A stretch of 53,614 nt of DNA from an uncultured bacterium (GTDB taxonomy: Bacteria; Zixibacteria; MSB-5A5; JAABVY01; JAHJOQ01): assembly GCA_965369655.1 (NCBI GenBank), contig CBDUQR010000017.1, forward strand, positions 1-53,614, in the 5' to 3' direction. The position numbers and the translations under genes are program-made. Below are positions 1,708 to 22,711 of the stretch, one piece after another (the stretch's first letter is position 1; every line of letters begins with the position of its first letter). Below the pieces are notes generated by a model. The model made no database searches. It saw nothing but the letters and a program-made list of their open reading frames with translations, and was not told where the DNA came from.

Positions 1708-1745
1708 ACACTATTAGCAGAATTCATGCAGTGGAGGTAAATGTA

Positions 1746-4031
1746 ATGCGAAAGATGAATAGAGTGGTTCTGATCATGGCGATCTTACTTCTGGCAGGCA
1801 GTCAGGTTTTCGGGTTTCAGGCGTACATAGGTCCGAGCGACATTGACGGACATATCTACAAGGAACCGCCTACCGAAGAAGAGATGCAGCAGATGATCGC
1901 TGAGCGCAACGAGCGGCACGCATGCAAACAGAAAGCCGGTGCCCTGTCGCAGAAATACGATGCGGCTCGAAGCCCAATGCTTGTTTTCTACCCGACTTCG
2001 AATATGTACGACTATGACGCGCTGTATTACAAGATCGATATAGAGATCGACATGTCGTCGGAGACTGTTGACGGCTACGTTGAGATGCGATGCAAGAGCC
2101 TGGTCGCCGGGTTGTCCTATGTTGACATGACGCTGACTACTTCTCTGAGCGTGACATCTGCGCGCCTCAACGGAACATCGCAGACTTTCTCTCACAGCAC
2201 GGAAATCCTGACGGTCAATTTCGATGAGACATTCGACGTCGGTGAGGAATTCACGGTAAGGATCGATTACAATGGCGCGCCGGAATACTCGAACCTCGAC
2301 GGGATGGATTTCTACACTATATGGAGCCGCAAAGTCTGCTACACGAACTGCGAACCCTTCGGCGCGAGAAACTGGTGGCCGTGCAAAGATTTCCCGTTTG
2401 ACAAACCAGACGACGGAGCCGATATCATCATCACACACCCGACCACGTACGGCGGTTACACGATGGACCTGATCTCCAACGGGTTGCTTCAGTCGATCAC
2501 CAACAACGGCGCTACCACAACCACACACTGGAAAGAGAATCATCCAATTACAACATATCTCGTTGCTCTCGTGTTGACCGATTTCAACCAGACAGTTCAG
2601 AACTGGGAATATGAGCCGGGCCAGTTCATGCCGGTTGAACACAACTACTATCCGAACGCGCCTCCGTCGGCAAGTGGGTATTCAACATGGTATATGGTGA
2701 ATTATACTATCCCTTCTCTCGATGCGCTGTCATACTACTGGGGACGTTATCCGTTCTATGACGAGAAATACGGCCACATGCATTACGGCTGGGGCGGAGC
2801 GATGGAGCATCAAACGTGCACCTCGATCAGCCCGTATTTCAACACCGAATACGTCATCGCTCATGAGCTTGCGCACCAGTGGGCGGGCGACAATGTCACC
2901 TGCAAGACATTCAATCACATGTGGCTGAACGAGGGATACGCATCATATAGCGAAGTTCTCTACTTCGAGTACACATACGGCTGGCCGACTGCGAAATCCT
3001 GGCTCTTTAGTCAACGTCACATAAACGCCGGTACTCCATATGTGGAAAATATCGAGACAGATAATATGTTCGATGGTGTGACGGTGTACGACAAGGGTTC
3101 CTGGCTGGTGCACATGCTGAGAAATCAGATGGGCGACGACCTGTTCTTCCCGGCCATGCAGCACTATTTTCATACGTCGGAGTTTGCAGGAAAATCAGCC
3201 GACACGGATGATCTGAATTCTGTTTGCTCAGAGTACTTCGGGTCCGACATGAGTTGGTTCTTCGACGCATGGGTATATCAGGAGGATCAGCCGAACTACG
3301 AATACTCGTACCAGTACGAAGAGAGCGCGAAGTCGACTGACTACATTGTCTATTTCTATCTCGCCCAGAATAACACTGACGGCATTTTCCCGATGGCAGT
3401 CGACATCGTGGCGTTTGCAGGAGATTACGACAGCTCATTTACGATCTGGAATGACTCGCAAGCCGAAATGTACATTTTCAATCTGCCAAATCCTCCCGAC
3501 TCGTTCTGGATCGATCCTGATGACAAGATTCTCAAAACAGTCAATGAAATTCCATGGTCGATGCGCATCGCCGTCAGCCAGGTGCCTGACGCAGTACTTG
3601 GCGAGCTATATAGCTTCACGTTCACCGTAATAGGCGGCGTTCCCGATTACTCCTGGGAAAAGACGCTGGGGCAGTTCCCGTTCAACATGACATTTGATTA
3701 TGCTACCGGTGTTCTCTCCGGCACCCCCACCTGGCCTGCCGACTACTTCTTCAGGCTTCGCTGCACCGATTCCGATTCCCCGCCCAACACCGACGAGCGC
3801 AGGTTCCTCATGAAAGTGATCGAGCCCGGTATAGCTCGCGGTGATGTCGACGATTCAGGAGAAATCGACATCGACGATGTCGTTTATCTGATCGAATACA
3901 TTTTCGGTGGCGGTCCGGCTCCCGATCCGATCGAAAAGGGTGACGTCGACTGCTCCGGTGGCGTGGATATTGACGATGTAGTCTATCTGATCAACTACAT
4001 CTTCGGCGGAGGTCCGCCCCCCTGCGAATAG
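1746..4031 (+). CDS. Secreted M1-family zinc aminopeptidase with Ig-like domain and C-terminal dockerin
   Basis: Signal peptide; GAMEH and HELAHQW-X18-E motifs; YDKG; two GDVD...DIDDVVYLI dockerin repeats; GGAGGT RBS before ATG 1746. Confidence 0.9.
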   Translation: MRKMNRVVLIMAILLLAGSQVFGFQAYIGPSDIDGHIYKEPPTEEEMQQMIAERNERHACKQKAGALSQKYDAARSPMLVFYPTSNMYDYDALYYKIDIEIDMSSETVDGYVEMRCKSLVAGLSYVDMTLTTSLSVTSARLNGTSQTFSHSTEILTVNFDETFDVGEEFTVRIDYNGAPEYSNLDGMDFYTIWSRKVCYTNCEPFGARNWWPCKDFPFDKPDDGADIIITHPTTYGGYTMDLISNGLLQSITNNGATTTTHWKENHPITTYLVALVLTDFNQTVQNWEYEPGQFMPVEHNYYPNAPPSASGYSTWYMVNYTIPSLDALSYYWGRYPFYDEKYGHMHYGWGGAMEHQTCTSISPYFNTEYVIAHELAHQWAGDNVTCKTFNHMWLNEGYASYSEVLYFEYTYGWPTAKSWLFSQRHINAGTPYVENIETDNMFDGVTVYDKGSWLVHMLRNQMGDDLFFPAMQHYFHTSEFAGKSADTDDLNSVCSEYFGSDMSWFFDAWVYQEDQPNYEYSYQYEESAKSTDYIVYFYLAQNNTDGIFPMAVDIVAFAGDYDSSFTIWNDSQAEMYIFNLPNPPDSFWIDPDDKILKTVNEIPWSMRIAVSQVPDAVLGELYSFTFTVIGGVPDYSWEKTLGQFPFNMTFDYATGVLSGTPTWPADYFFRLRCTDSDSPPNTDERRFLMKVIEPGIARGDVDDSGEIDIDDVVYLIEYIFGGGPAPDPIEKGDVDCSGGVDIDDVVYLINYIFGGGPPPCE

Positions 4032-4257
4032 CGATGACGCTTATTGGGAACACAAAACAAATGCCGGGCGATTGCTATCGTCCGGCGTTTTCTATTGATC
4101 TCGGGGCTTTGATCGGCGTGATTGACGCTGTTATTCTTCTTTCCGCGTTCTAAGTGCTCGCTGGGGCTGCGCCCCTGTGGATTCTGTATTATATCTACTT
4201 GCAATACAATAAGCTGAGGACACAGCGGCACAGCCACTGTGTGCACATAAACATGAG

Positions 4258-5709
4258 CTACTTCATAGACGTTTTCTTCCGCGTCAGTATCGCCCGAATG
4301 TGATCTACCATCTTCTCGGATGGGAGTGTTACCTGTATGTCCTCGGCCTTGAGCCACTCGGCTCGATCCTTAACTTCTTTCGACTGCTCGCGACCGGCAA
4401 CCAGGTCTTTTATCGTCACTTCATTCTTGTCGAACTCATCCGACCCGCAGATCACGGCTACCGGAATGTCGAGTCGATCTGCGTACTGAAGTTGCTTCGG
4501 AACTCGCCTGTTGTTGCCGAGAAAGACATCTACTCTGAAGCCTGCTTCACGCAATCTCCCTGCGATTTTGAAGTAATCGTTCATGCGGTCCCTGTCCATC
4601 GTCGTTACGAGAACATCTGCGCAACTCCTTCTTGTTTCAATCGCCTGGAGTTTCAGAAGCGCAGCGAGGAGCCTGTCCGGCCCGATCGATGATCCTGTGC
4701 CCGGCATCTGCTGACCGGAAAATCGCGAGACCAGGTGATCGTATCGCCCACCCGAAAAGACGCTGCCATATTCGGGCAGATCGAGCAGGAATGTCTCAAA
4801 CACGGGACCGGTGTAATATCCGAGTCCGCGCACGACAGCCAGGTCAATCCTTGCTTTGACAGGGTCTACGTCCATCGAATCGAGGAAACCCTGTATCTGT
4901 CTCAACTCATCCAGTCCCTCTTCGGCAGGAGCAATTCCGGCAAGCAACTCGGCAGCCTCGCGCATCTGTTCATCACTGGACAGTTTTGCGATATCGAGGA
5001 ATCTTTCGATGTGAGCAATCTGACGATCCGGCAGTTCGAGTCCGGCGATCTTGTCGCCCGACTTGTCGACCCGCCCCGGTCCGAGTTCGAGGATTACAGC
5101 CTTACGACCCTGCTTATCAAGCTTGTCGAGTACTCGGAAGACATCCGGCGCGACATCAATTGGTATACCGGCATATTCGGCGAGGCCATCAAGGATTTTC
5201 CTGTCGGAGTACTTAACCTCAACTCTCTCGATGCCGAGATGATTCATCGTTTCGACCATTATGGCGATAATCTCGGCGTCCGCCGCTACGAGAGACGTCC
5301 CGACAATATCGATGTCGAACTGCAGGAATTCCCTGTACCGTCCGGGGCCCGGCTTGTCGACCCTCCAGCACGGCGCAACCTGGTACCGCCGGAACGGAGT
5401 CGGCAGGTCCCTGTTCGCTGCAACGAATCTTGCCAGTGGTGCGGTCAGATCAAAACGCAGACCCATCTCGACATCATCAGGTCCGACAAAATTAAATATC
5501 TGCTCTTTGTTCTCCTTGCCGTAGTCGGCGCCGAACAGGGTCGTGAGGAATTCAAGAGCCGGCGTCTGAAGAGGCAGATAACCGTGCCGCTCGAAGACTT
5601 CGCGAATCCGTTCAATCAGATCGCGACGGGTCAATTCCTCCTCGGGACCATAGTCTCGGAATCCCTTCAGAAGTTCCGGTTTGACTCGTTTGGATTTGTC
5701 GGATTTCAT
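4258..5709 (-). CDS. hisS: Histidine--tRNA ligase, Caulobacter/alphaproteobacterial-like type
   Basis: KGFRDY, LRFDLTAPLAR, motif 2 RVDKPGPGRYREFLQFDIDIVG, VRGLGYYTG, SGGRYD, anticodon-binding domain KQLQYAD. Confidence 0.96.
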   Translation of the reverse strand: MKSDKSKRVKPELLKGFRDYGPEEELTRRDLIERIREVFERHGYLPLQTPALEFLTTLFGADYGKENKEQIFNFVGPDDVEMGLRFDLTAPLARFVAANRDLPTPFRRYQVAPCWRVDKPGPGRYREFLQFDIDIVGTSLVAADAEIIAIMVETMNHLGIERVEVKYSDRKILDGLAEYAGIPIDVAPDVFRVLDKLDKQGRKAVILELGPGRVDKSGDKIAGLELPDRQIAHIERFLDIAKLSSDEQMREAAELLAGIAPAEEGLDELRQIQGFLDSMDVDPVKARIDLAVVRGLGYYTGPVFETFLLDLPEYGSVFSGGRYDHLVSRFSGQQMPGTGSSIGPDRLLAALLKLQAIETRRSCADVLVTTMDRDRMNDYFKIAGRLREAGFRVDVFLGNNRRVPKQLQYADRLDIPVAVICGSDEFDKNEVTIKDLVAGREQSKEVKDRAEWLKAEDIQVTLPSEKMVDHIRAILTRKKTSMK

Positions 5710-5734
5710 ATTGTTGGTTGGTCAGATAAATTTA

Positions 5735-5811
5735 TGGTACTGGGGGGGAGGGTCGAACTCCCGACCTCCTGATCCACAGTCAGGCACTCTAACCATCTGA
5801 GCTACCCCAGC
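5735..5811 (-). tRNA. tRNA-His(GUG), CCA encoded, lacks G-1/C73
   Basis: Cloverleaf GCTGGGG-TA-GCTC..GAGT-G-CCTGA CT GTG GA TCAGG-AGGTC-GGGAG TTCGACC CTCCC-CCCCAGT-A-CCA. Confidence 0.96.
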
Positions 5812-5984
5812 ATCATTACTTAGTACATCGGAACGAAAACGCCTCGCTTTGGTTCCAGAATCAATGAATGTTCACCCGATCAGTCGGGCCGAGTATCTAA
5901 TAAAGCCATATAGCTATATATGGCAACGAAAAAATGCTGCCTGCTGACAAACAGAACGATCAGCATCGCAGTGATGGATTTAGT

Positions 5985-6012
5985 TTGACAACCGACATAG
6001 CTAACGTAGATT
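5985..6012 (+). promoter_or_regulatory. sigma70-like promoter for apgM
   Basis: TTGACA-16nt-TAGATT. Confidence 0.45.
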
Positions 6013-6046
6013 CATTCTGAATCGACCACCGTTTGAAAGGGACACG

Positions 6047-7255
6047 ATGAAACAGAATCTCATAGAATCACTCGCGCAGAAGACAGATTCGAAGATTGTC
6101 ATGCTTGTGATGGATGGCGTCGGCGACATCCCGGCTGACGGCCACGGCACTCCGCTCCAGGAGGCTGATACGCCAAATCTCGACGCGCTCGCGAAAGACG
6201 GAATACTCGGACAATTCGATCCGATCGCACCGGGAGTCACCCCCGGTTCCGGACCTGCGCATCTCGGCCTATTCGGTTATGATCCGGTCGAGAACAATGT
6301 CGGTCGGGGAATCCTCTCGGCGTTCGGCATCGATTTCGACTTGACTGAACGAGATATCGCGGCGAGAGTGAACTTCTGCACGCTCGATTCAGACGGCAAT
6401 GTTACGGACAGGCGGGCGGGACGGATTTCGGACGGCGTCAATAGACAATCCTGCGACAAGATCAAAAATAATATCAAGTTACCGCAGGGACTTGAACTAT
6501 TTCTTGAGACTGAAAGCCAGCACCGCGCGATGCTCGTGATCAGGGGTGACGACCTCTCCGATCAGATCGCCGACACCGATCCCCAGCATACGGGTGTGCC
6601 GCCGCTGGAACCATCGGCGCTCACTTCGGAGGCCGAACAGACATCGTCGATTCTCAAGAATATTCTCGGGCAGGTGCGCGAAATCCTTGCCGATGAGGAG
6701 AAGGCGAACATGATTCTCCTGCGTGGATATTCGGGCTTCAGGAAATTCCCGTCGCTGAAAGATCGATTCGGTCTGAAGGCGTGCGCTATTGCAGAGTATC
6801 CGATGTACCGGGGACTCGCGAAACTGGTCGGCATGAACGTGCTTCCGCAATACTCCGGTTTCGAGAATGCGATCACGGTTCTCAACGAGAACTGGAGCGA
6901 GCACACATTCTTCTTCCTGCATGTCAAAAAGACAGACTCCTACGGCGAGGATGGAAACTTCGACGGCAAGAAAGATATTATCGAGCAGGTCGATCAGATC
7001 ATCGTTCCGGGCATTACAGCGCTTAAGCCGGACGTCATCATAGTGACAGGCGACCACTCGACGCCCTGGCCAATGGCGGCACATAGCTGGCATCCGACGC
7101 CGGTGTTGCTGCACGGCGAACTAATCCGTCGAGACAGGACAAAGGCATTTTCCGAAATCGATTGCCAGGAGGGTGGTCTCGGCAGACTACCGCTCGTCAA
7201 CCTGCTACCAATAGCAATGGCGTGCGCCGGAAAACTCGCCAAGTTCGGGGCATAG
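6047..7255 (+). CDS. apgM: 2,3-bisphosphoglycerate-independent phosphoglycerate mutase (ApgM type)
   Basis: MDGVGD, TPNLD, PGSGPAHLGLFGYDP, DRRAGRI, HVKKTDSYGEDG, TGDHSTP, HSWHP. Confidence 0.92.
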   Translation: MKQNLIESLAQKTDSKIVMLVMDGVGDIPADGHGTPLQEADTPNLDALAKDGILGQFDPIAPGVTPGSGPAHLGLFGYDPVENNVGRGILSAFGIDFDLTERDIAARVNFCTLDSDGNVTDRRAGRISDGVNRQSCDKIKNNIKLPQGLELFLETESQHRAMLVIRGDDLSDQIADTDPQHTGVPPLEPSALTSEAEQTSSILKNILGQVREILADEEKANMILLRGYSGFRKFPSLKDRFGLKACAIAEYPMYRGLAKLVGMNVLPQYSGFENAITVLNENWSEHTFFFLHVKKTDSYGEDGNFDGKKDIIEQVDQIIVPGITALKPDVIIVTGDHSTPWPMAAHSWHPTPVLLHGELIRRDRTKAFSEIDCQEGGLGRLPLVNLLPIAMACAGKLAKFGA

Positions 7256-7295
7256 TCTGCCTCACCCGATGCTCCGCTCTGCCGGAGCCACCGGC

Positions 7296-7415
7296 CTATT
7301 TGCTCAGTATGCCATGCACCAGCATCATGACAAGAATTCCAGCAAAGGCACTAATGAAGATTACGATGATGGAGTGCTTGCGAGTCGTTTCTCTCATCCT
7401 CAAGAATGACTTCAC
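7296..7415 (-). CDS. Putative 39-aa single-pass membrane protein
   Basis: AGGAG RBS 7 nt before GTG; MKSFLRMRETTRKHSIIVIFISAFAGILVMMLVHGILSK* (basic N-terminus, one hydrophobic helix). Confidence 0.45.
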   Translation of the reverse strand: MKSFLRMRETTRKHSIIVIFISAFAGILVMMLVHGILSK

Positions 7416-7640
7416 TCCGATGCTCCTATCCTTTCAACGTGTCCGCTAAATCGCGGGAGGGTCAATTCTACTTTTCATGTCATTCCCTTTCCACAGATAG
7501 CTTTTGCAATTTCATCAGACCAAAACCAAATTCCAAATCCTGCATTGCTACCCGCACCTGACCCCCTTTCTGCTGTGTCGCTTTGTGTACCATTGTCGTT
7601 GCTTGAGTTTTCTAATTATCACCTCCCTTCAGGAGAAATA

Positions 7641-7694
7641 GAGCCGGGTCCGGATCATTTATTTGACCCCTCAGCACCCTTCCGAACCCGGCTC
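7641..7694 (-). other. Strong hairpin in the predicted sigma54-driven transcript
   Basis: GAGCCGGGTTCGGA...TCCGGACCCGGCTC, 14-bp stem with one G-U. Confidence 0.5.
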
Positions 7695-7792
7695 ATGCAC
7701 CGCTGAGTTGAGAGGAGCGTACCGACAGCCGAAGATAACATCGCTGTCCTTACGTCAACCGCGTGCGATTCTAAGCTACATTCAATACGTAC

Positions 7793-7809
7793 TGCAATCT
7801 TAATGCCAA
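7793..7809 (-). promoter_or_regulatory. sigma54 -24/-12 promoter
   Basis: TTGGCATTAAGATTGCA: GG-N10-GC, one mismatch to TGGCAC-N5-TTGCA. Confidence 0.75.
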
Positions 7810-7915
7810 AGCTTTGCATTCATCGCTGTAATCGCGTAATCGACGGAGTGACAACAATTTGCATGGCACGACGAAATGCTGTGACGACGAGATATCCAGT
7901 GTCGAAAGGGAGTAA

Positions 7916-8013
7916 TTTCGCAGCAGATTACGCAGCAAACTAAGCGAGTGCTAATATCCGTTGCGTCTCAACAGGTTATGGCTGCGTACACGTTTCGCAG
8001 TAGAATTACGCAG
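7916..8013. promoter_or_regulatory. Candidate enhancer (UAS) direct repeats
   Basis: TTTCGCAGCAGATTACGCAG (7916-7935) and TTTCGCAGTAGAATTACGCAG (7993-8013), about 110-200 bp upstream of the sigma54 promoter. Confidence 0.5.
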
Positions 8014-8067
8014 TTGCGCAGCTAACACAGAAAGTCGATGTGCCTTGTTGGGAAAGGTCGGGGTGTG

Positions 8068-10227
8068 TCAGGCGAGGTTGTATCTCTTGATCCAGTTGCG
8101 AACAGTGGCTTCGCTCATACCGAGCCGTCGCGCCGTCTCGCGGCGATTCCAGCCGGTTTCCTCAAGCATATTCGCCAATTCGCCCATCTGGCAGTGGTGA
8201 GGTTGATCGCTCTGTGCGAGAGTCGCCATCATCGCGACATCGCAGTGCGATTCGATCCAGAGCCTGTTGATCTCAGAGCGCAACTCACGAACATTGCCGG
8301 ACCATTGTCTCTGCGACAGGATGTCGGCAAGCGCAGAAACAGCGCCTTTATGACCGTTACCGGAGGCGCGCTGTGACAGCAAACTCATGAAATACGTCAC
8401 CATGGCCCGTATGTCGCCGTTTCGCTCTCTCAGTGGCGGAATATCGAATGATATCTCGTTCAGCCTGTGATACAGGTCGAGCCTGAATCGACCCCGGTCG
8501 ACCTCCCGCTCGATATCACGGTTCGTGGCGGCGATCAGTCTGAAGTCGACATGGCGTTTGTCTGTCTCACCCAGCCGACGGACCTCGTGCGTTTCGAGCA
8601 CCTCAAGAAGTTTCGCCTGGAATGCAGGGGTTGCATCCGCGATTTCGTTAAGATAAAACGTACCGCTCTCGGCTTTCTCGAAAAGACCGGCTCTGGATTC
8701 CAAAGCGCCGGTGAATGCGCCTCTGCAACAACCGAACAACTCCGATTCGATCATGTCATGCGGTATCGCGGCGGCATTGACTGTCACGAACTCGCCCCCG
8801 CGACCCGATGCCTCGTGTATATACCGCGCAAACAAGTCCTTGCCGGTGCCGGTCTCGCCGGTCAGAAGGACGGTCATGTTGGATTTCGCGACCTTGTCCG
8901 CAAGCGAAACAAGCCGTTTCATCTCGGAACTGGCTGCGACCATAGTCGGGACGGAATCCTCACGCGGAACGATAATATCCGGTACAGATTGAACCTTCAG
9001 TTCGTCGATCGCGCTCTGAACCTGCTCGACACGTTTCGGGACACCCATCTCGTCGAACAACAGACGTGCCGATTCGAGATGACGCATCCTCGTATCATTA
9101 TTGTACGCTTCGGATTCGCCGCATGCGAAATATGTCAGCGCGAGTTCATACCGTGCGCCGATCTCTCTGAGTAATGCGATGGACTTGCCAAAATAGTCGC
9201 GGGCAGTATCGTAATCCTCGCGGGGCGTGTATATCTGGCCGTATGCGCGATACAGCGCACCGAGTTCGATACGTTCATTGATTTTAGTAATAGCTTTTTC
9301 AGCCCTTTTTGCAGTCTTCATCGCCTCGTCATACTTGCCCTCGGCGATACATACATCGGTCAGCATACGAAGCGTCTGCGCAACAGCCGACGCAGTCGGC
9401 TCTGGCATATCGAGAACTTGCTGGTAGTATTCGCGAGCTTGAGAGTAGTTGCCGGAGTAGTACTCAAGCAGGCCAGCATATTCATAATACAGCCGAAAGT
9501 CAAAAGAACCAGACAGGCCTTCTATCAATTGCCTGCCCTTTTCGAGCATTTCCCGACCAGCCTCAGCGTCACCTCTCATCACAGACAGTCTGGCTCTTGA
9601 GAGATACAAATTGGCCAATTCCTGATTGTTGTGAGAAACACACGAGGCTTCAAGAGCCTCGGACGACTGCGAGAGCCTCCCCATGTGCATCAGTACACGG
9701 CCAGCATTACGCTTAGCTAACGACCCCGCATCTCTTAACTTGTTCGCACTACAATAAGCGATGCAGGTCTCCAAGTTATCGAGCGATTTGTGTAGCTTCC
9801 CTTCTACAAAGGCCAGTCTTGCAAGCATATTCAGAGCCTTGGTAGCCATAGCGTGATCAGAGGCAATCTTAGAGAACACATAGCACTCATTGAAGTTGTC
9901 ATAGGATTCAGGCATCTCACCAAGCGCCATAAACAACATCCCAGCATAGTACTTTGACTGGGAGACCAACTGCTCATCATCGCAAGACATCAAGCATTTC
10001 AGCAATCTTGCTAACGCATCCCTCGCAACCTCAAGGTCACCGAGATAGTACTCACTTCTGAGAAGCGCAAGTCGCAAATAGGCTTCTTCGCTCGCTGAGA
10101 GAGTATTTGCGAATTCCCCCAATAACTCAATCGACATAGTGCGAACTTCATTCCACCTCTTCTCGGAGACACTCACCTCGATTGTTCTCTTGATGGTTTG
10201 AAACTCTGTTTGTGGTAGATTAGACAT
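8068..10227 (-). CDS. sigma54-dependent transcriptional activator with N-terminal TPR region, AAA+ and Fis-type HTH; no receiver domain
   Basis: TPR-like helical repeats over ~aa 1-410; GETGTGKD, ESELFG..GAFTGA, LIAATNR, FRLDLYHRLN, WSGNVREL; HTH NRRETARRLGMSEATV. Confidence 0.92.
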   Translation of the reverse strand: MSNLPQTEFQTIKRTIEVSVSEKRWNEVRTMSIELLGEFANTLSASEEAYLRLALLRSEYYLGDLEVARDALARLLKCLMSCDDEQLVSQSKYYAGMLFMALGEMPESYDNFNECYVFSKIASDHAMATKALNMLARLAFVEGKLHKSLDNLETCIAYCSANKLRDAGSLAKRNAGRVLMHMGRLSQSSEALEASCVSHNNQELANLYLSRARLSVMRGDAEAGREMLEKGRQLIEGLSGSFDFRLYYEYAGLLEYYSGNYSQAREYYQQVLDMPEPTASAVAQTLRMLTDVCIAEGKYDEAMKTAKRAEKAITKINERIELGALYRAYGQIYTPREDYDTARDYFGKSIALLREIGARYELALTYFACGESEAYNNDTRMRHLESARLLFDEMGVPKRVEQVQSAIDELKVQSVPDIIVPREDSVPTMVAASSEMKRLVSLADKVAKSNMTVLLTGETGTGKDLFARYIHEASGRGGEFVTVNAAAIPHDMIESELFGCCRGAFTGALESRAGLFEKAESGTFYLNEIADATPAFQAKLLEVLETHEVRRLGETDKRHVDFRLIAATNRDIEREVDRGRFRLDLYHRLNEISFDIPPLRERNGDIRAMVTYFMSLLSQRASGNGHKGAVSALADILSQRQWSGNVRELRSEINRLWIESHCDVAMMATLAQSDQPHHCQMGELANMLEETGWNRRETARRLGMSEATVRNWIKRYNLA

Positions 10228-10240
10228 AGTGAGTTCGCTA

Positions 10241-10618
10241 CTATCTCAACTCATCCCACGGGTCTTCATCCATTTCCCGTCGGTCGCTTGGTTCGCCATT
10301 CCAGCCGGGTGGGTACTGAGATTCTAACGGACCGTCCGGGTCATTCCATGAAATGTCGATTACTGTTATGCCTGTACCGGGAAGTCTGGAAATGAAAAAC
10401 CTGCTGAATAGATGTCGCAGTGATTCACCCCAGGTACGCTTCATATCGTAGGCGGCAGATGTCTTCGCGAGTCCTGAGCCTCGAAGGGTCTGCCCCATCT
10501 CTTGCGCTCTCTTATCAAATGCCGCCGTCTTATTGCTGTTACCGGCAAAGGTGACAGACGGCGAAGCCATACCAACAATGAATAGCGCGAAGGTGAGAAG
10601 CAAAATCACGCGTTTCAT
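10241..10618 (-). CDS. Small secreted protein (125 aa), candidate signal propeptide
   Basis: Signal peptide MKRVILLLTFALFIVGMASPSVTFA; GGAG RBS; ends 13 nt before the activator start; acidic tail ...EMDEDPWDELR. Confidence 0.75.
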   Translation of the reverse strand: MKRVILLLTFALFIVGMASPSVTFAGNSNKTAAFDKRAQEMGQTLRGSGLAKTSAAYDMKRTWGESLRHLFSRFFISRLPGTGITVIDISWNDPDGPLESQYPPGWNGEPSDRREMDEDPWDELR

Positions 10619-10761
10619 GTAACTCGCTCCGGCTTATGTTTTCTCTCAACTATCTATACTCTATTACTCGACAATGTATTGCACATTATTAAATAAATGT
10701 CAAGTGAATTATCGAGGTTGGACCATTTTTATAACGGATACTGTGGGCGGCAACCTCTCCC

Positions 10762-10915
10762 GAGGCTGTCCCAAAAGTAGGTCGTGTTCCGAACCTGATG
10801 TAATCAGGTGAGAAACGCGACACTTCTATCTTGTTACCTGGAGTCGGGTTTCTGGCAGGCTTCGCCTGCTGCGGAACGCCGACCTACTGGAGACCAGGAC
10901 TTATGAGACAACCTC
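10762..10915 (+). mobile_element. MITE subfamily A (154 bp) carrying a GTAG-type REP pair
   Basis: Terminal inverted repeats GAGGCTGTCCCAAAAGT / ACTTATGAGACAACCTC; CTCCC on both flanks; near-identical copy at 22712. Confidence 0.8.
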
Positions 10916-10969
10916 CTCCCCGTCTGCCCCGTTTTCGCTTACATCGTCGAGGATTTTTCCCTGTGCAGG

Positions 10970-11902
10970 CTAATCGTGTGAATCAGGGGAAACCGGACGG
11001 TCAAGAATATCAAGCCATTCCCCTGCTTTGTTGGCAACCCATCGCGCAATTCGCCTGTCTGGCAAGATCCCCTGGGAAGCAAACCGCACGTCGTGACCGG
11101 AAAACATGTCAGCACCCCCGGAATGCATTTGTCCCCCACTCGCCGAGAAGTCCATTGCCAGCATCTCGACACCCATTGACAGATACATACTGACAACAAG
11201 TATGGTCTCATGTTTCTCCAGAGCACGGAATAGTACTGGGGCGCCATTGGCCCTGAATCCCTGACCCATCCCCACAAAAGCATAGTCGAAATATCTCATG
11301 CCGAGTGTCCCACAGATATGCGCGCCAATAGTCTTCGACTGCTGTTCCCACTGCGGCTCATATCCGCGGTCTCCGTGAGACATAATTACCAATGCCGCTT
11401 CTGTTGGATCATCGATCATCCCCCGGACTCGGTCTATCAATACCTCTGTTATGGTATTGACGTCAATAACCGGACCGATAGTCAGCTTAATATCAGTGTC
11501 AACGATCTTGATTCCCTCTTCGCGCAATTGCTCAACTCTCTGCCTTTCACAATGAAGACCAAGAATCGTGGGAAGATCGTAGAAGGTATGGTCTGACGGA
11601 CCAATGAACATTGGCAGGATATAGAGCCGATCAATATCCATTTCCTCCATGTCGTCAATAGCACTTGCAATTGAAGGTTGGGTGAACTCCATCAAGGCAA
11701 CTCGCACTGCGGCGAAGGCCTGAGGTCGTTCACTATCAAGAATCTCCTTCACTTGTTTTTCGACATCAAGAACAGGCTGGTTCCACGCATCATATGGAGC
11801 ACCGTGAGCGACAATAAGTAACCCACGCTTTTCGGCAGCATAAGTAATACCGGCAGAGAATAGAATCAAAACCAGAGCTAACAACAAAGTCTGATGTTTC
11901 AT
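10970..11902 (-). CDS. CbiX/SirB-family class II chelatase-like protein with signal peptide
   Basis: GLLIVAHG, ALMEFTQPSI, LPMFIGPSDH, second domain LVIMSHG; start at MKHQTLLLALVLILFSAG with GAGGT RBS. Confidence 0.75.
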   Translation of the reverse strand: MKHQTLLLALVLILFSAGITYAAEKRGLLIVAHGAPYDAWNQPVLDVEKQVKEILDSERPQAFAAVRVALMEFTQPSIASAIDDMEEMDIDRLYILPMFIGPSDHTFYDLPTILGLHCERQRVEQLREEGIKIVDTDIKLTIGPVIDVNTITEVLIDRVRGMIDDPTEAALVIMSHGDRGYEPQWEQQSKTIGAHICGTLGMRYFDYAFVGMGQGFRANGAPVLFRALEKHETILVVSMYLSMGVEMLAMDFSASGGQMHSGGADMFSGHDVRFASQGILPDRRIARWVANKAGEWLDILDRPVSPDSHD

Positions 11903-12197
11903 CTGATACCTCTCAGTATCCAACAGGATTTGAATCCACTTACTTTTGGAGAAATAGTGTGACTGATTTTCGCACCTCACAAAAGAAATAATCAATAAGG
12001 CGATTTCATAATTGAAAATGACTATCATTTTCAACATCACGATTGCAGGCATATAAGCAATATTGCGACTGTTATGTCAAGTACTTTGTGAAAACTTTCT
12101 CGTGAGTGCACGTAGCTCAGAGTGCATAATAGCATACACCGGGACCATGCCCGGTGTATGCAGAAGAATGTTCTTCGAGGAATCTCTAATCGTCAGG

Positions 12198-13049
12198 CTA
12201 CCAGTTCGGTATGCCGTCGCCGTCGGGATCACCAGGTGGCGGACCGGCTGCGAAAATGTAATTGATCAGGTACACGACATCGTCGATGTCAACTATTCCG
12301 TCGGCGTTAGCGTCGCCAATGAGCACATTCGGCATGAATATCGGAAACAGGACTCTGACCCCATCGACTCCAGCATATGCCGCCTGAGTGAACAATATTG
12401 GGAAGACACGGGCGGTTGATGTCGGTGTCAGTGTCACTGGTGTGCCGGGTGCAACCAGCCCGAAATATGCCGTTGCGAACAAGTCCCAATTCGGCACAAC
12501 CGGGAGTACAGGACCGCGCGGAGGATTTAGAATTATTATCGTGTGGTTTACATTGTCAATTTTTGCCTGAAGTTCCGTTCCAACTGATCCAGTAAAATCG
12601 ACACTCGTACAACTCAGGTCTGCTTCCCCTGGTCCAGGGGCAAACGAATAGATAATCACAGAACCATAAAGTGCGACTGGAGTCTTCACAATGATCATCG
12701 CACTCGTCTGATCTACGCCATCAGGTTCACCGATTACCATGAACGAAGCGGCAGTTGGCAAAGGCACGTCTGTGCCGGGCATTGGGAACACAGCAGCACC
12801 CCCATAGATATACTCGATCAGTTGCCACAGATCGCCATAGTTAACTCCTGGGAAACCGTCACAATCACAGTCGACCAAGTCAGGCGGTGGTCCACCTGAG
12901 AAGAAGTAGGCTGTCAAGTAGACCACATCATCTATGTCGGCACCACCGCTGAAATTACAGTCTCCGGGCTGCGCCACTGCCATCGAAGACATTGCAAGCA
13001 TCAGGAAAATACTCCAGATGCCAACATGACTCATTCTTGCGAACTTCAT
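12198..13049 (-). CDS. Secreted protein with N- and C-terminal dockerin motifs around a beta-rich (possibly cohesin-like) core
   Basis: Signal peptide; GDCNFSGGADIDDVVYLTAY and GDANADGIVDIDDVVYLINYIF; GGGAGG RBS. Confidence 0.8.
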   Translation of the reverse strand: MKFARMSHVGIWSIFLMLAMSSMAVAQPGDCNFSGGADIDDVVYLTAYFFSGGPPPDLVDCDCDGFPGVNYGDLWQLIEYIYGGAAVFPMPGTDVPLPTAASFMVIGEPDGVDQTSAMIIVKTPVALYGSVIIYSFAPGPGEADLSCTSVDFTGSVGTELQAKIDNVNHTIIILNPPRGPVLPVVPNWDLFATAYFGLVAPGTPVTLTPTSTARVFPILFTQAAYAGVDGVRVLFPIFMPNVLIGDANADGIVDIDDVVYLINYIFAAGPPPGDPDGDGIPNW

Positions 13050-17783: not shown

Positions 17784-19384
17784 ATGTTATCCATGAATTC
17801 CTGCCCGTAGACGCACTCGCCCTCGAAGAATGTTGCGAGTACATCAATGTCTTTCAATTGATCCGCCCTCACATCAAACGGATCCTGTTTCAGTATTACT
17901 ATATCGGCACTTCTGCCCGGAGTTATCATCCCGCAGAGGTTTTCGTCACCGAGAGCGTACGCCACACCGGCGGTAAATCCGGCGACAGCCTCACCGCGAG
18001 ACAACCGCTGTCCCAACTGATGGCTCAACTTGCCGTCAAACGATCTCCGCGTTACGGCCGACTGAAGCCCAACAAACGGATCGAGCTTTTCTATCGGCGC
18101 ATCCGACCCAAACGCTAAACGCGCTCCCGAATCGATGAAATCTCGGAATGGATATGCGTTCTTCGCACGGCGTCCCCAGTGCTTTTTCATCAGGTCTATA
18201 TCGGAACTGCAATGAGACGGCTGCACCGACGCTATGATATTCAACCGCGCAAGCCTCGGCAAATCATCAGGCCTTATGATCTGAACATGTTCTATCCTGT
18301 GTCTGAGTCTGCGATGCTTCTTGCTGATGCTTTCAAATGCGTTCAGCGTCTGGTGATTGGCGCGGTCGCCGATCGCATGCACGGCGCATGCTATTCCGTT
18401 CGACGCCGCCGCACGGATCAGCCGCTTCATCTCTTGCTCGGACGTTGTCTCCATACCGCAATTGTTTCTGCTTCCCCGGTATGGCTCGAACATCAGCGCC
18501 GTCTGTGACCCAAGCGCGCCATCAGCAAATATCTTAGTTCCGGCTACGCTCAGATGCGGGCCGCCGAGTCCCGATCTGAGCTTGAGCGCAAGCATCTCAT
18601 CGAGAAAACGCGCCGGTATGTACTGCCTGATTCTGAGCTTCAGACCCTTCTTGTGATGATACTCCTGAAGCAGTCCGAAGTTGTCGATATCGTCGAAATT
18701 GCCCAGAGAGGTAACTCCCAGCCTGTGACAGTGTGATATGGCATTGTCGATCATCCTGAAGGCGTCGCGCTTTGAGGGTTTACTGGAGATGCGATAGACA
18801 AGAAATGCCGCATTTTCGAGGAGAACACCCGTCGGCTCTCCCCTGTCATCCCGATCGATCATCCCCCCCTCCGGATCAGGCGTCGCAGAATCGATCCCCG
18901 CCATTTTCAGTCCGAGCGAGTTGGTCCAGAGGAGATGTTCATCCCTGGAGAGTATCGCGGCTGGATTCTCAGGCGCTATCCGATCAAGATCATCCTTGTG
19001 CGGAGTCCCGCCGTCATCCCATCGATCCCTGCTCCAACCCTTGCCGACTATCCACTCTCCTTTCGACATCCCTGAGACGTATTTCCTGACGCGCGCCAGC
19101 GCCTCGCGGTAGGATGTGCAGCCATCGAGATCGATATTACCGAGAGACTGGGCATAGAATGCAAAGTGAACATGGGCGTCGCCGAACGACGGCAGCATGG
19201 TCATACCGCAGAGATTGATTAGCCGGTATTCATCGACAGGCACACCGAGAATATCTTCGTTCATGCCTGTCCAGGTAATTTGACTTCCATCGATAACCAT
19301 CGCCTGCGCAGTCGGAAGTGATGGATCGAGTGTTCTGATTCGTCCTGAATGAAAAAGCAGCTTTGTGTCGGACTTTCGACTCAT
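17780..19384 (-). CDS. Amidohydrolase_3 (YtcJ-like) metal-dependent hydrolase
   Basis: DAHVH, KIFADGALGS, HAIGDRA, RHRIEHVQ, FGSDAP. Confidence 0.9.
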   Translation of the reverse strand: MSRKSDTKLLFHSGRIRTLDPSLPTAQAMVIDGSQITWTGMNEDILGVPVDEYRLINLCGMTMLPSFGDAHVHFAFYAQSLGNIDLDGCTSYREALARVRKYVSGMSKGEWIVGKGWSRDRWDDGGTPHKDDLDRIAPENPAAILSRDEHLLWTNSLGLKMAGIDSATPDPEGGMIDRDDRGEPTGVLLENAAFLVYRISSKPSKRDAFRMIDNAISHCHRLGVTSLGNFDDIDNFGLLQEYHHKKGLKLRIRQYIPARFLDEMLALKLRSGLGGPHLSVAGTKIFADGALGSQTALMFEPYRGSRNNCGMETTSEQEMKRLIRAAASNGIACAVHAIGDRANHQTLNAFESISKKHRRLRHRIEHVQIIRPDDLPRLARLNIIASVQPSHCSSDIDLMKKHWGRRAKNAYPFRDFIDSGARLAFGSDAPIEKLDPFVGLQSAVTRRSFDGKLSHQLGQRLSRGEAVAGFTAGVAYALGDENLCGMITPGRSADIVILKQDPFDVRADQLKDIDVLATFFEGECVYGQEFMDNI

Positions 19385-21252
19385 CCTGCGAGCACCCTGT
19401 GGTCGCCCACTCTTTTCGTGATACCCATCGAATCGAGTTTTTCGAGAATAGGTACTCCATACTTGCGTGAGAATCCGAACATCTCCCTGATTTCAGAGAC
19501 AGCAATTTTGCCGTTCTGCTCGATTCTGGCGATCATGTCGGCCTTGAGTCTTTCAAACTCCGCGCCCTGCAGTAACAGCCCCCCTGGAAGCTCTACGAGT
19601 TCGCCGCCGTCGATCATGAAGTTGAGAATATCCTTCATGGCAAACGATTTGCCCTCAGCTTGCTTTCTCGATGGCGGGTTCTTCGGATCGCTCTCAAACA
19701 TCGCGATGATGTCGCCTCTAAGGCTTTCCTGCTCCGGTTTCAATTTCGGGAGATGATCGGGAAGGTGAACGAGTGCACCACTCGCAGACAGAATGTCATC
19801 ATCGATGAGTTTTCCGATCACAGCGTCGGAAACATCAGGATCGAGATTCGAGCGCGAGATAAGCTCAGCTCTCGCGATACCTCTGCGCGCAGGATACTGC
19901 TCATGGAATTTACTGACTCGATCAACAAATTTCTGCGAATGAGTGTCGAACTGCTGAGTCTGGCAGAACATATCGCCTGCTTTTGTCAAAATCCCCGAAT
20001 CGAGCATATTCGCCAATGCGGCTTCAACATCGGTTCTCGAAAGATTGGAGGAGTGAAGGATATCCTGCGCCTTGACTCCCGTCAGCCATGAGACCTGTGT
20101 TTCAATCAGGCTCTCGATGTTGTCCACATCGATCCGCTCGTAGTAGGCGCGCGACTTCTTATCCGACCGAGAGTGCCTTGTGCAATCCGTGTCGATGACA
20201 ATCCCACCGCCCACGAGAATATCGGGCGTAGGCAGGCGGATGATAAACCTGTCGCCTATTCTCACGAGGACCCGTTCCTCGAAATGAAATTCGCATATCC
20301 CGCTGACGCCGGGCTTGAGGCGATCATCCTTGAACACAAAAGCTCTTGCGTTCACTTTCGCGGTGCCGATCATCAGCTTGACCATGCGATTGTGCGTCAG
20401 GTCGATGCCTGAATTCGGCGAAATCGTCACACGGACTGCGATCGACGACGCACCGTCGTACAGCTTCGTTCGAGTAATCGCACTCCCTCTCGACAGATCG
20501 TTGTGATTCACGCCGCTGAGATTGAGCGCGACTCGCGAACCCGCCTGAGACTCATCCCGCTTCTTCTTATGTGTCTGTATCGATTTGACCCTTGCAGTCA
20601 GGTTACCTGGAATGATCCTGACCTCGTCTCCTACGCTGAACATCCCATCCCGCATAGTACCCGTTACGACAGTGCCATGCCCGGCCATAGAGAAAACGCG
20701 ATCAGCGTAGAGCCGGGGAAGATCGGGATGACTGCGGGTTGTGATTTTTTCAAGCGTCGAGGAGATTGTCGCGCGGATATCGTCGAGACCCGAGTTATCG
20801 ACAGCCGAGAACGTGAGCATCGGCGCACCATCGAGGAATGTGCCGCTGACTTTCTCCGAGACATCATCCTTGACGAGTTGCAGCCAGTCGGCATCCGCCA
20901 TATCCGTCTTGGTAATCACCAACATACCGCGTTCCGTGCCGAGCAGGTCGAGAATCTCCAGATGCTCCTGCGACTGTGGCATCCAGCCGTCATCCGCCGC
21001 CACCACGAACATCACCATGTCGATCGAGCCGACACCGGTGATCATCGCATCGACAAATCTCTCGTGACCCGGAACATCGACTATCGCGACTTCCGAACCA
21101 TCCGGTAGCGAGAACCACGCGAATCCAAGCTCGATTGTCATCTCGCGCGATTTCTCTTCGGGCAAACGATCAGGGTCCATGCCGGTCAGAGCGCGGACAA
21201 GCGAAGACTTGCCATGATCGATATGCCCGGCTGTCGCGATTGTATAGAGCAT
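19381..21252 (-). CDS. selB: Selenocysteine-specific elongation factor
   Basis: ATAGHIDHGKS, DRLPEEKSREMTIELGF, DVPGHERF, C-terminal winged helix SRKYGVPILEKLD...RVGDHR. Confidence 0.96.
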   Translation of the reverse strand: MLYTIATAGHIDHGKSSLVRALTGMDPDRLPEEKSREMTIELGFAWFSLPDGSEVAIVDVPGHERFVDAMITGVGSIDMVMFVVAADDGWMPQSQEHLEILDLLGTERGMLVITKTDMADADWLQLVKDDVSEKVSGTFLDGAPMLTFSAVDNSGLDDIRATISSTLEKITTRSHPDLPRLYADRVFSMAGHGTVVTGTMRDGMFSVGDEVRIIPGNLTARVKSIQTHKKKRDESQAGSRVALNLSGVNHNDLSRGSAITRTKLYDGASSIAVRVTISPNSGIDLTHNRMVKLMIGTAKVNARAFVFKDDRLKPGVSGICEFHFEERVLVRIGDRFIIRLPTPDILVGGGIVIDTDCTRHSRSDKKSRAYYERIDVDNIESLIETQVSWLTGVKAQDILHSSNLSRTDVEAALANMLDSGILTKAGDMFCQTQQFDTHSQKFVDRVSKFHEQYPARRGIARAELISRSNLDPDVSDAVIGKLIDDDILSASGALVHLPDHLPKLKPEQESLRGDIIAMFESDPKNPPSRKQAEGKSFAMKDILNFMIDGGELVELPGGLLLQGAEFERLKADMIARIEQNGKIAVSEIREMFGFSRKYGVPILEKLDSMGITKRVGDHRVLAG

Positions 21253-22643
21253 CAGGACCTGAGGACCTCCCTGATCGCCTGAATTAAGAGTTTGTCTTCA
21301 TCCTTGAAAACCGCCTTGAGATCGAGCACAAACTTGTCGTTCACTATCCGGCCTATCACCGGCAGACTGTGCAATCTGAAAATGCGAGCTAATTCATCGG
21401 GTGACATCGGAGATGAAAGCTGCACACCGAACGATGGCAGTTCCTCTTCAGGAGCAGCTCCACCGCCGACGAGTGCATTTGTCTCGACCACAGCTGCATC
21501 AATTCCTGCCGCTGCGAGTTCTTCGCAGATTCTATCGGCGCGCATCCGAAGCAATTCGGGTTGAGATGTCAGCATCTCGGTTGCAGGAATATCTTTCAAG
21601 TGATCTCCCCGCAAATATGAAAGCAGTGTTTCTTCGAGCAGGAGAAGCGTAGTCTTGTCGGTTCTGAAAGCTCGATACAACGGATTGGAATACAACTTCT
21701 CTATCGCATCGGACGAACCGAGGATCACACCCGCCTGCGGTCCACCGAAGAGCTTGTCTCCTGAGAAACATACAAGATCAGCGCCGGAATCGAGCGCATT
21801 TGTTATCGAAGGCTCATCCTTTGCTCCATATTCTTCGGGAGCCATCCAGCTCCCGGAACCGAGATCGTACATCACGGAAACGCCCTTTTCCCCGCCAAGT
21901 TCGGCGAGTCTTTTCGCATCGATTGATTCAGTGAATCCGGTGATCCTGAAGTTCGACCAGTGAATCTTGGCAATCAGGCCGGTGTTCGGACCGACAGCGC
22001 GGTAATAGTCGTCAAATGAGACACGATTTGTGGTTCCGATCTCTCTAAGCAGGGCGCCGCTCGCTTTCATGACGTCGGGTATGCGGAACCCGCCGCCGAT
22101 CTGAACGAGTTCGCTTCGTGAGACGACACACTCCCTGCCGTTGCAGAATGTGTTCAGGATCAGATAGACTGCCGCCGCGTTGTTGTTGACCACACACACA
22201 GCTTCAGAACCGGTCAGAAGCGCGAACAATCTTGAGACATGCTTCCCGCGTTTGCCCCGCTTGCCGGGTAAAATATCGTATTCGAGATTGCTGTAGCCTG
22301 ACAGCTTCTCGACAAGCGCTTCGGCGCGCTTCCTGCCAATCGGTGAGCGCCCGAGGTTGGTGTGCACCACGATGCCGGTCGCGTTAATAACGCGCGTGAA
22401 GAAACTGAACCGCTCAGCGTCGAGACGACGGAGAATATCTCTCCTGACATCTGCGCCCTGTACGGATGCATCGCCTTTCAGAATCTTGCGATATCGATCG
22501 AACACGTTCCTGACCACGCTCAGCACAAAAGGTCGCGAGAGCGATTCGATGTGTCGTGTCAGGAATTCCGAGGACAACACCTGCTCGACCTGGGGAATAT
22601 CTGACGGCTTCGTGAGTTCCTTGTCGAATAAATCCTTAGTCAT
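21252..22643 (-). CDS. selA: L-seryl-tRNA(Sec) selenium transferase
   Basis: VINATGIVVHTNLGRSP, VNNNAAAV, SRSELVQIGGGFRIPDVM, FSGDKLFGGPQAG. Confidence 0.96.
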   Translation of the reverse strand: MTKDLFDKELTKPSDIPQVEQVLSSEFLTRHIESLSRPFVLSVVRNVFDRYRKILKGDASVQGADVRRDILRRLDAERFSFFTRVINATGIVVHTNLGRSPIGRKRAEALVEKLSGYSNLEYDILPGKRGKRGKHVSRLFALLTGSEAVCVVNNNAAAVYLILNTFCNGRECVVSRSELVQIGGGFRIPDVMKASGALLREIGTTNRVSFDDYYRAVGPNTGLIAKIHWSNFRITGFTESIDAKRLAELGGEKGVSVMYDLGSGSWMAPEEYGAKDEPSITNALDSGADLVCFSGDKLFGGPQAGVILGSSDAIEKLYSNPLYRAFRTDKTTLLLLEETLLSYLRGDHLKDIPATEMLTSQPELLRMRADRICEELAAAGIDAAVVETNALVGGGAAPEEELPSFGVQLSSPMSPDELARIFRLHSLPVIGRIVNDKFVLDLKAVFKDEDKLLIQAIREVLRS

Positions 22644-22711
22644 GAATTCGAATATAGCAGGCAGTTGAATTGCAGACAAGTTATATCAAACATGTGGGCG
22701 GCAGATGTCCA

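Follow-up and report, generated by a model that had tools for sequence, protein, structure and literature searches.

The DNA analysed here, hereafter the window, is a 53.6-kb stretch of a Zixibacteria metagenome-assembled genome from marine sediment, and at about positions 7296-10703 it carries a compact regulatory cassette. The parts all lie on the minus strand, in the order of a gene for a precursor with a Sec signal, a gene for a predicted sigma54 enhancer-binding protein (EBP) with tetratricopeptide repeat (TPR), AAA+ and Fis domains, two clusters of short repeats, and a predicted sigma54 promoter. The source DNA was found in three sequencing runs, all DNA, that belong to one marine-sediment metagenome study.

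The precursor gene (10241-10618) encodes 125 amino acids (aa) and ends 13 nt ahead of the EBP gene. A signal peptide is predicted at aa 1-25/26 (about 10541-10618), with cleavage between MKRVILLLTFALFIVGMASPSVTFA and G, and translation of the open reading frame (ORF) gives a conserved motif plus variable tail, DEDPWDELR, at the C terminus (10244-10270). Upstream of the precursor, the hexamer TTGACA (10698-10703) resembles a sigma70-type -35 element and could, as a consensus match only, be part of a promoter of the precursor-EBP operon. Neither Pfam nor NCBIfam has a match to the precursor. An AlphaFold2 model made with 29 sequences has a mean pLDDT of 54.7, in which the signal helix alone is confident and the mature part has values of 43-56; as modelled, the pro-region has no confident fold.

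The EBP gene (8068-10227) encodes 719 aa. Pfam assigns it TPR_12/TPR_MalT repeats, a Sigma54_activat domain (aa 430-593, E = 4.4e-60) with an AAA_lid_14 lid (8212-8940 for the two), and a C-terminal Fis-type helix-turn-helix (HTH; HTH_8, aa 684-716, 8080-8178), and the same scan found no REC (Response_reg), GAF or PAS domain. The Walker A motif (GETGTGK) and the GAFTGA loop are intact in the window protein, and in paralogs the loop reads GAYTGA, GTYTGA, GSYTGA or GSYSGA. Apart from an N-E Walker B motif, the protein has the sequence of a bona fide sigma54 EBP. It reaches the cut-off of no NCBIfam equivalog, with the LuxO model at 190.8 bits against a cut-off of 800. A search of its own ~3-Mb genome with the EBP returns 22 matches, a large sigma54-activator complement for one rpoN.

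In place of a conventional sensor, the EBP is predicted by AlphaFold2 to have a TPR superhelix of ~415 residues and 21 helices (about 10 TPR pairs, pLDDT 91). Identity comparison and the model divide it into a hypervariable N-terminal half (TPR_N, aa 1-240, 9508-10227), which is a proposed specificity module, and a C-terminal half that is nearly invariant in alignments (TPR_C, aa 241-415, 8983-9507; GNY..AREYYQQVLDMPEPTASAVAQTLRMLTDV ... GARYELALTY ... VPKRVEQV) and holds most of the invariant or near-invariant columns of the EBP. The protein has no signal peptide or membrane segment, as would be expected of a cytoplasmic TPR receptor. Its nearest PDB sequence matches are LGN/Pins and kinesin light chain (KLC; E = 8e-17 to 7e-12), and Rap phosphatase chains, which belong to the RRNPP group of peptide quorum-sensing systems, match the TPR profile more weakly (E about 6e-7). 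The best global fold match is MalT domain III (1hz4; TM 0.67/0.78, rmsd 5.2 Å), followed by APC5 and LGN. Because LGN, KLC, MalT and APC5 match better than Rap, the Rap similarity is generic to TPR domains, and both sequence and model present the sensor as a generic TPR solenoid, not a recognisable RRNPP relative.

Two enhancer-like clusters separate the EBP gene from the promoter. Read from the sequence, the distal cluster (7978-8021) has direct copies CTGCGCAA, CTGCGTAA and CTGCGAAA and then an inverted TACGCAG; the repeat CTGCGTAAT-N4-CTGCGAAA occupies 7993-8013 (chance expectation 0.01) and is accompanied by the extra direct and inverted half-site. A pattern search places the proximal cluster, CTGCGTAAT-CTG-CTGCGAAA, at 7916-7935, where the N3 spacing has a chance expectation of 0.00. 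Pairs of half-sites at most 25 nt apart occur three times at the locus and once elsewhere in the 2.99-Mb genome; they are essentially unique to the locus. The predicted promoter TGGCATTAAGATTGCA (TGGCAT-N5-TTGCA, 7793-7808) lies 260 nt past the EBP stop, with a predicted start near 7782, and it is the only match to TGGCAY-N5-TTGCW in the 53.6 kb (expected 0.12). The genome has one copy of rpoN, on contig C1. By sequence, then, the HTH, cognate upstream sites, a -24/-12 promoter and a genomic rpoN that mark an EBP are all present.

The original prediction, made from the letters of the window, had called each of these parts: the secreted protein with an acidic tail close before the activator, TPRs substituting for a receiver, GAF or PAS domain, the intact GAFTGA and Fis HTH, the two half-site repeats and the near-consensus promoter. 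All of them are borne out. It had also described the neighbourhood as free of kinases, and none occurs among the ORFs of at least 180 aa in window positions 1-22000. The lower GC content that it noted in the precursor (about 0.50) and N-terminal TPR part (0.46-0.49) relative to the AAA+ part (0.55-0.57) holds as a modest difference.

Recurrence and variability of the gene pair

Thirty-eight loci were gathered from relatives, and dropping L025-L031 as duplicates left 31 distinct loci. Precursors were counted in the 30 loci with at least 350 nt upstream and promoters in the 26 with at least 320 nt downstream. A signal-peptide ORF adjoins the TPR-EBP on the same strand in 27 of the 30, a positive outcome for the originally proposed check that a small secreted ORF consistently precedes TPR-AAA+-Fis homologs. 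A script recognised 25 of these, with precursor ORFs of 100-138 aa and gaps of -43 to +26 nt; the precursors of L042 and L043 are hidden under an over-extended EBP frame and were recovered by the family hidden Markov model (HMM) and translation. No precursor was found in three of the 30 loci: in L038 the contig ends within the EBP, and in L048 and L051 the EBP frames are N-terminally short. L023 has only 128 nt upstream, and the last 35 codons of a precursor are present there. The adjacency of precursor and EBP is retained across three families.

The downstream elements recur as well. A predicted sigma54 promoter lies 210-284 nt past the EBP stop in 22 of 26 loci, 21 of them standard and one (L052) a variant with TTGAT at -12; none was found downstream of the EBP in L033, L036, L049 and L053. 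In every locus that was read, a 7-8-nt half-site forms two clusters in the interval from EBP stop to promoter, typically as two direct copies and one inverted. The half-sites themselves are specific to the paralog (CTGCG[TA]AA, CGCGTAA, CTCGCA[GA], TCGTAG, GTGACGAA or CGACGAA).

The precursor HMM has matches in 22 of the 285 genomes scanned from the phylum, nearly all belonging to three families, and one genome (G003) has five EBP copies and six precursor matches. Larger collections add little annotation. The precursor family comprises 24 clusters in 5.8 billion proteins, all named 'hypothetical', and 46 clusters in 1.84 billion representatives, all 101-162 aa long, and the unnamed clusters that an ESM Atlas search with the precursor returned (best score 0.81) are a lead only. 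The TPR sensor family has 76 clusters at E ≤ 1e-10; those with an organism name are all Zixibacteria, and no functional name goes further than 'sigma 54-interacting regulator'. A metagenome scan with the EBP found distant relatives only, as partial matches of at most 47% identity.

The genome of the window (G000) has a second cassette on contig C29 (1400-4493, minus strand). It consists of a 113-aa signal-peptide ORF (4152-4493) with an internal EGDPWDDNNDDD motif, a TPR-EBP at about 1921-4140, and a sigma54 promoter TGGCATGATCGTTGCA situated 236 nt downstream of the EBP. A strong terminator hairpin with a T-run follows ~130 nt on, and this promoter-terminator unit looks like a small RNA.

In the alignment of the precursor family, the alanine at the predicted signal-peptidase site and the aspartate of the C-terminal motif are invariant. 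One large clade has D-x-G-G as its motif and the clade of the window has D-[DE]-x-[GP]-W, with 3-7 residues between motif and stop. Members of the D-x-G-G clade share a nearly constant signal peptide and pro-region, and their tails differ in nearly every case (EGQDK, VDID, SSVDI, STDDF, SDDV, DEK, HDID, HEVDS and others). The closest relatives of the window precursor (81% and 61% identical) retain DEDPW and change the last four residues from DELR to GDAK and EELK, and close relatives with DEDPW also include the ending EEQK. Tandem precursor genes occur at three loci (two in L037, two in L052 and three in L045), each copy with its own tail. One precursor, P0141, has two serial units of pro-region, motif and tail (…DGDDDGWGEIDK, then …DADDHGWDDQK), an arrangement reminiscent, by analogy, of tandemly duplicated pheromone pro-peptides.

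The EBPs are variable in a similarly restricted way. Over the 325 pairs of 26 full-length EBPs, mean identity is 24% in TPR_N (aa 1-240), 49% in TPR_C (aa 241-415), 47% in the AAA+ domain and 39% in the HTH. Close pairs, whose TPR_C halves are 78-95% identical, show this most clearly. L022 and L023 are 87% identical in the AAA+ domain, 78% in TPR_C and 22% in TPR_N; L043 and L057 have values of 86%, 90% and 27%; and L039 and L045 have values of 67%, 83% and 25%, with an HTH identity of 97%. L022 and L024 (AAA+ 87%, TPR_C 88%, TPR_N 35%) have precursor bodies that are 90% identical and tails that read WEEHTK and WETDLK. The sole pair with 97% identity in TPR_N (L039 and L050) has identical tails after the GG (EGVY). 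In the close pairs examined, the tail therefore diversifies together with TPR_N, and the variability appears to be focused on these two segments, as expected of a ligand-receptor specificity pair. The original prediction had proposed a check for such co-variation of the secreted ORF with the TPR domain, and also for a conserved short motif in that ORF, which is seen here as D-x-G-G or D-x-x-[GP]-W ahead of the variable tail.

In the three sediment runs, the summed contig depth rises several-fold over window positions 10359-10592, 9189-9422 and 8838-8954. These peaks coincide with the precursor signal and pro-region, TPR_C and part of the AAA+ domain, and many of the contigs diverge from the window beyond them. 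This pattern fits a community with many related cassettes that share the conserved parts. The contigs of these sediment reads offer no usable population variation at the precursor tail.

Predicted products of the sigma54 promoter

Transcription from the window promoter is predicted to yield an RNA of ~150 nt with two stem-loops (7632-7782). The first 151 nt from the predicted start fold with z = -2.29, and 2 of 200 shuffles fold as well. Over the full 516 nt between promoter and apgM, folding stability does not exceed that of shuffles (z = -0.33), and only the first ~150 nt stand out. A 14-bp hairpin at the 3' end (7641-7694), followed by the weak U-tract CUCUAUUUCUCC, is conserved after the sigma54 promoter in seven cassette copies from four genomes, with compensatory changes in 6 of its 12 pairs. 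In a same-genus genome the hairpin copy is followed by T7, and the next gene is on the other strand. At L058 and L059 a terminator comes after ~250 nt. Because of the recurring hairpin, the T7 copy, and the terminators in C29 and in L058/L059, the likeliest product of the window promoter would be the ~150-nt RNA, possibly with read-through. An Rfam scan of window positions 5000-13000 detected a tRNA at 5738-5811 only and no match for this RNA.

Two small ORFs of doubtful status could be reached by read-through, one of 37 aa (7480-7593) and a hydrophobic one of 39 aa (7296-7415); neither has a Pfam match. The original prediction had described a hairpin-containing region with one small ORF here. 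When the post-promoter stretch is compared by BLAST with the same-genus locus, the promoter and hairpin alone are conserved and the small ORFs are not. Beyond them, downstream of the cassette, lies a convergent apgM gene.

At other loci the promoter and a leader precede diverse lipoprotein genes or, in L021, a radical-SAM gene; terminated small RNAs are a further output. The locus L031/L042 (genome G023, contig C235) has the promoter and then a 52-aa ORF, a gene for a radical-SAM/SPASM enzyme and a gene for a major-facilitator-like transporter. From their sequences, these genes form a cluster under predicted cassette control that resembles those of ribosomally synthesized and post-translationally modified peptides (RiPPs).

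The locus L035 of the same-genus genome (G001, contig C519, 880-2130) has two tandem units of repeat cluster and sigma54 promoter after one EBP. The first unit leads to the conserved hairpin, a GGAGGTG tract and a lipoprotein gene, and the second to a ~150-nt RNA that ends in the same hairpin and T7. The loops and 3' flanks of the hairpins (7641-7694 and homologues) are rich in GGA/GGGG and are often followed by GAAGGAGGTG, and a csrA gene is present on contig C6. It is conceivable from these sequences that the hairpin RNAs titrate CsrA.

The neighbouring genes encode an M1 peptidase, HisRS, a tRNA, ApgM, a CbiX-like protein, a dockerin-like protein, an amidohydrolase, SelB and SelA. The M1-family metallopeptidase, which has a He_PIG Ig-like domain, is encoded 4 kb from the cassette (1731-4031, plus strand), and no link to precursor processing was seen. 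The adjoining SelB and SelA genes (19381-22679, minus strand) indicate selenocysteine-insertion machinery in the organism.

A candidate peptide-signalling circuit and its alternatives

The reading that we favour, at a probability of roughly 0.45, is that the cassette serves peptide signalling in the manner of RRNPP, with a sigma54 activator as its base. In such a system, a sigma70-type promoter would express precursor and EBP as a two-gene operon. The first product would be a Sec-exported pro-peptide with its variable tail of 3-7 residues behind the D-x-G-G or D-E-D-P-W motif. The tail (in the window WDELR or a somewhat longer peptide) would be cleaved off and released outside the cytoplasm, and it would re-enter the cell, possibly through an OPT oligopeptide transporter. 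The second product would await it in the cytoplasm as a sigma54 EBP that uses its TPR superhelix as the sensor. The variable TPR_N might read the variable tail, and the invariant TPR_C might either read the invariant motif or couple the sensor to the AAA+ ring. Binding of the peptide would turn the AAA+ domain on or off, and the level of peptide might in this way report cell density. From its private repeat clusters downstream of its own gene, the EBP would remodel sigma54-RNA polymerase at the adjacent promoter. The output would be the ~150-nt hairpin-terminated RNA here and, at other loci, a structured leader with a lipoprotein, a radical-SAM cluster or a terminated small RNA.

The anatomy of the precursor, with its invariant cleavage alanine, pro-region of no confident fold and variable tail, resembles that of Phr/AimP-type pro-peptides. 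The TPR profile has matches among TPRs that bind peptides (LGN/Pins, KLC and Rap), and the genome encodes an OPT-family oligopeptide transporter (E = 1e-101) that would in principle offer an import route. The original prediction of a circuit analogous to RRNPP stands with respect to the linkage of the two genes, the motif, the co-diversification and the promoter. It does not extend to the receptor fold or to import. The TPR is not specifically RRNPP-like and no Opp-type importer is evident, and for these reasons the cassette would be an analogue and not a member of RRNPP.

Several observations weigh against the favoured reading. RapJ superposes on the EBP TPR with a TM of only 0.48/0.55. No Opp-type importer was found in the genome, where the sole SBP_bac_5 gene lies in a two-component operon: behind this Opp/Dpp-type gene (G000 contig C20, 18266-23043) come genes for a histidine-kinase-like membrane protein and a sigma54-type response regulator, and no permeases, and the operon looks by sequence like a periplasmic peptide-sensing two-component system, not an importer. 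The OPT transporter is shared by 270 of the 285 phylum genomes; being near-universal, it provides no specific link to the cassette and is uninformative as a profile partner. An acidic peptide must cross the diderm envelope twice, and no processing protease for the precursor was identified. The acidic-W motif of L032/L033 and of the second cassette (contig C29) is internal, with ~50 residues after it, and the precursors of L058/L059 have no motif, which means that a C-terminal tail as the mature signal is not universal. The co-diversification of tail and TPR_N is seen in a small number of related pairs, and neighbouring genes have a common history. Finally, the Walker B motif (aa about 527-528, window 8600-8640) is L-N-E-I instead of D-E. 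The window EBP and 9 of 14 aligned members have the N-E form, D-E is found in the remaining five, and the Glu is invariant; the ATPase behaviour may consequently be atypical. A complex prediction of the TPR (aa 1-429) with precursor residues 81-125 scored 0.00 and 0.00 against a mark of 0.32, and as a prediction without controls it weighs neither way.

Some of these difficulties disappear if, ahead of Sec export, the TPR binds the tail of its own precursor inside the cytoplasm, so that the output follows the export rate of the same cell and no peptide is re-imported. TPR secretion chaperones double as co-activators in type III secretion by a similar logic. Such export sensing would explain equally well why the genes are closely paired and why tail and TPR_N co-vary. 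It would work without an importer, in keeping with the lack of an Opp operon in the genome, and would remove the problem of the diderm envelope. However, up to five or six orthogonal copies per genome and tandem precursors with different tails are hard to justify for a housekeeping gauge, and the classical Sec signal, invariant cleavage-site alanine and unstructured pro-region point to a released product. We regard export sensing as unlikely. A similarly doubtful explanation is that the two genes share an operon without being ligand and receptor. The small protein would then have an envelope or extracellular job of its own, the TPR would sense another protein or a small molecule, and the variability would be that of fast-evolving, recombining cassettes. 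The best fold match of the sensor, MalT domain III, does bind a sugar-derived inducer and not a peptide, and the motif is internal or missing in some clades. Yet an unpaired function is difficult to reconcile with an adjacency that is held in 27 of 30 loci across three families, and with variability that is confined to the precursor tail and TPR_N while the flanking parts are conserved.

We consider a RiPP pathway very improbable, in which the small ORF would supply the precursor as conserved leader plus hypervariable core, the EBP would be the regulator and the sigma54 promoter would drive the maturation genes. The conserved N-terminal part and hypervariable C-terminal core do follow the RiPP pattern, and radical-SAM genes stand behind the sigma54 promoter at two loci, one of them with a SPASM domain. 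But radical-SAM enzymes are 2 of 5 downstream proteins scanned, and by eye most other loci have lipoproteins or RNA only. The SPASM locus has a separate 52-aa ORF ahead of its enzyme, and in the window no maturation enzyme lies beside the precursor. To our knowledge, RiPP precursors normally lack Sec signal peptides.

Relation to known systems and significance

The RRNPP/RRNPPA systems of peptide quorum sensing (Rap-Phr, NprR-NprX, PlcR-PapR, PrgX and AimR-AimP) are described from Bacillota and their phages (PMC10075063, PMC9765709, PMC11343458), and cytoplasmic TPR-receptor peptide signalling is treated as a trait of Bacillota and their mobile elements (PMC10075063, PMC9765709). The cassette is like them in that a gene for a cytoplasmic TPR receptor stands beside a small gene for an exported pro-peptide with a variable C-terminal end as the would-be signal, and in its many orthogonal copies per genome with tandem or duplicated pro-peptides. 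It differs in its effector, which is a sigma54 AAA+ domain with a C-terminal Fis HTH instead of an N-terminal HTH or a phosphatase/anti-activator surface. In addition, its precursor gene precedes the receptor gene, its host belongs to the diderm FCB group, a search for an Opp operon found none, and the TPRs have no specific kinship to RRNPP (RapJ TM 0.48/0.55; HMM E about 1e-6). A further likeness is that the output of arbitrium can be an adjacent small RNA (aimX).

A cell-cell signal is turned into transcription of small regulatory RNAs by a sigma54 EBP in the LuxO-Qrr system of Vibrio, according to one account (PMC10162802). By analogy, the same route from signal to sigma54-dependent small RNA is proposed for the cassette. 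In contrast to LuxO, whose receiver is phosphorylated via membrane kinases, the EBP of the cassette has no receiver or nearby kinase and its sensor is a TPR solenoid. A ligand-binding solenoid that controls an ATPase-driven activator is familiar from MalT (STAND, SUPR), and Pfam TPR_MalT matches the EBP. MalT binds maltotriose, has a STAND NTPase and a LuxR HTH, and acts at sigma70 promoters, whereas the cassette has a sigma54-type AAA+ domain and a paired gene for a secreted peptide. Kinesin light chain and LGN/Pins, the closest PDB sequence matches of the EBP TPR, are eukaryotic cargo and polarity adaptors that bind short linear peptides in a TPR groove. KLC recognises tryptophan- or tyrosine-acidic motifs, as one study reports (PMC6214655). 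These motifs resemble DEDPWDELR and DDGGWEDQNK, an analogy that may serve as a lead on binding mode only.

The literature on RRNPP with sigma-54, Zixibacteria with sigma-54, TPR EBPs and Gram-negative RRNPP, with subscription-only papers outside its coverage, yielded no description of such a system. A prior description of TPRs as a sensor class of EBPs was likewise not found in that literature. The usual view is that diderm bacteria signal by means of small molecules and membrane kinases. We tentatively suggest, from the sequence comparisons, that the cassette could be the first peptide-pheromone system with RRNPP logic outside Gram-positives, that each Zixibacteria cell may maintain several private channels, and that the EBPs may include a new class with a peptide-gated TPR sensor.

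If this is true, an uncultured sediment phylum would have evolved RRNPP-like logic independently and on other transcription machinery, and EBPs would gain a new kind of sensor domain. The cassettes would then be compact and orthogonal three-part units of signal, receptor and promoter that are directly testable in E. coli, which has sigma54.

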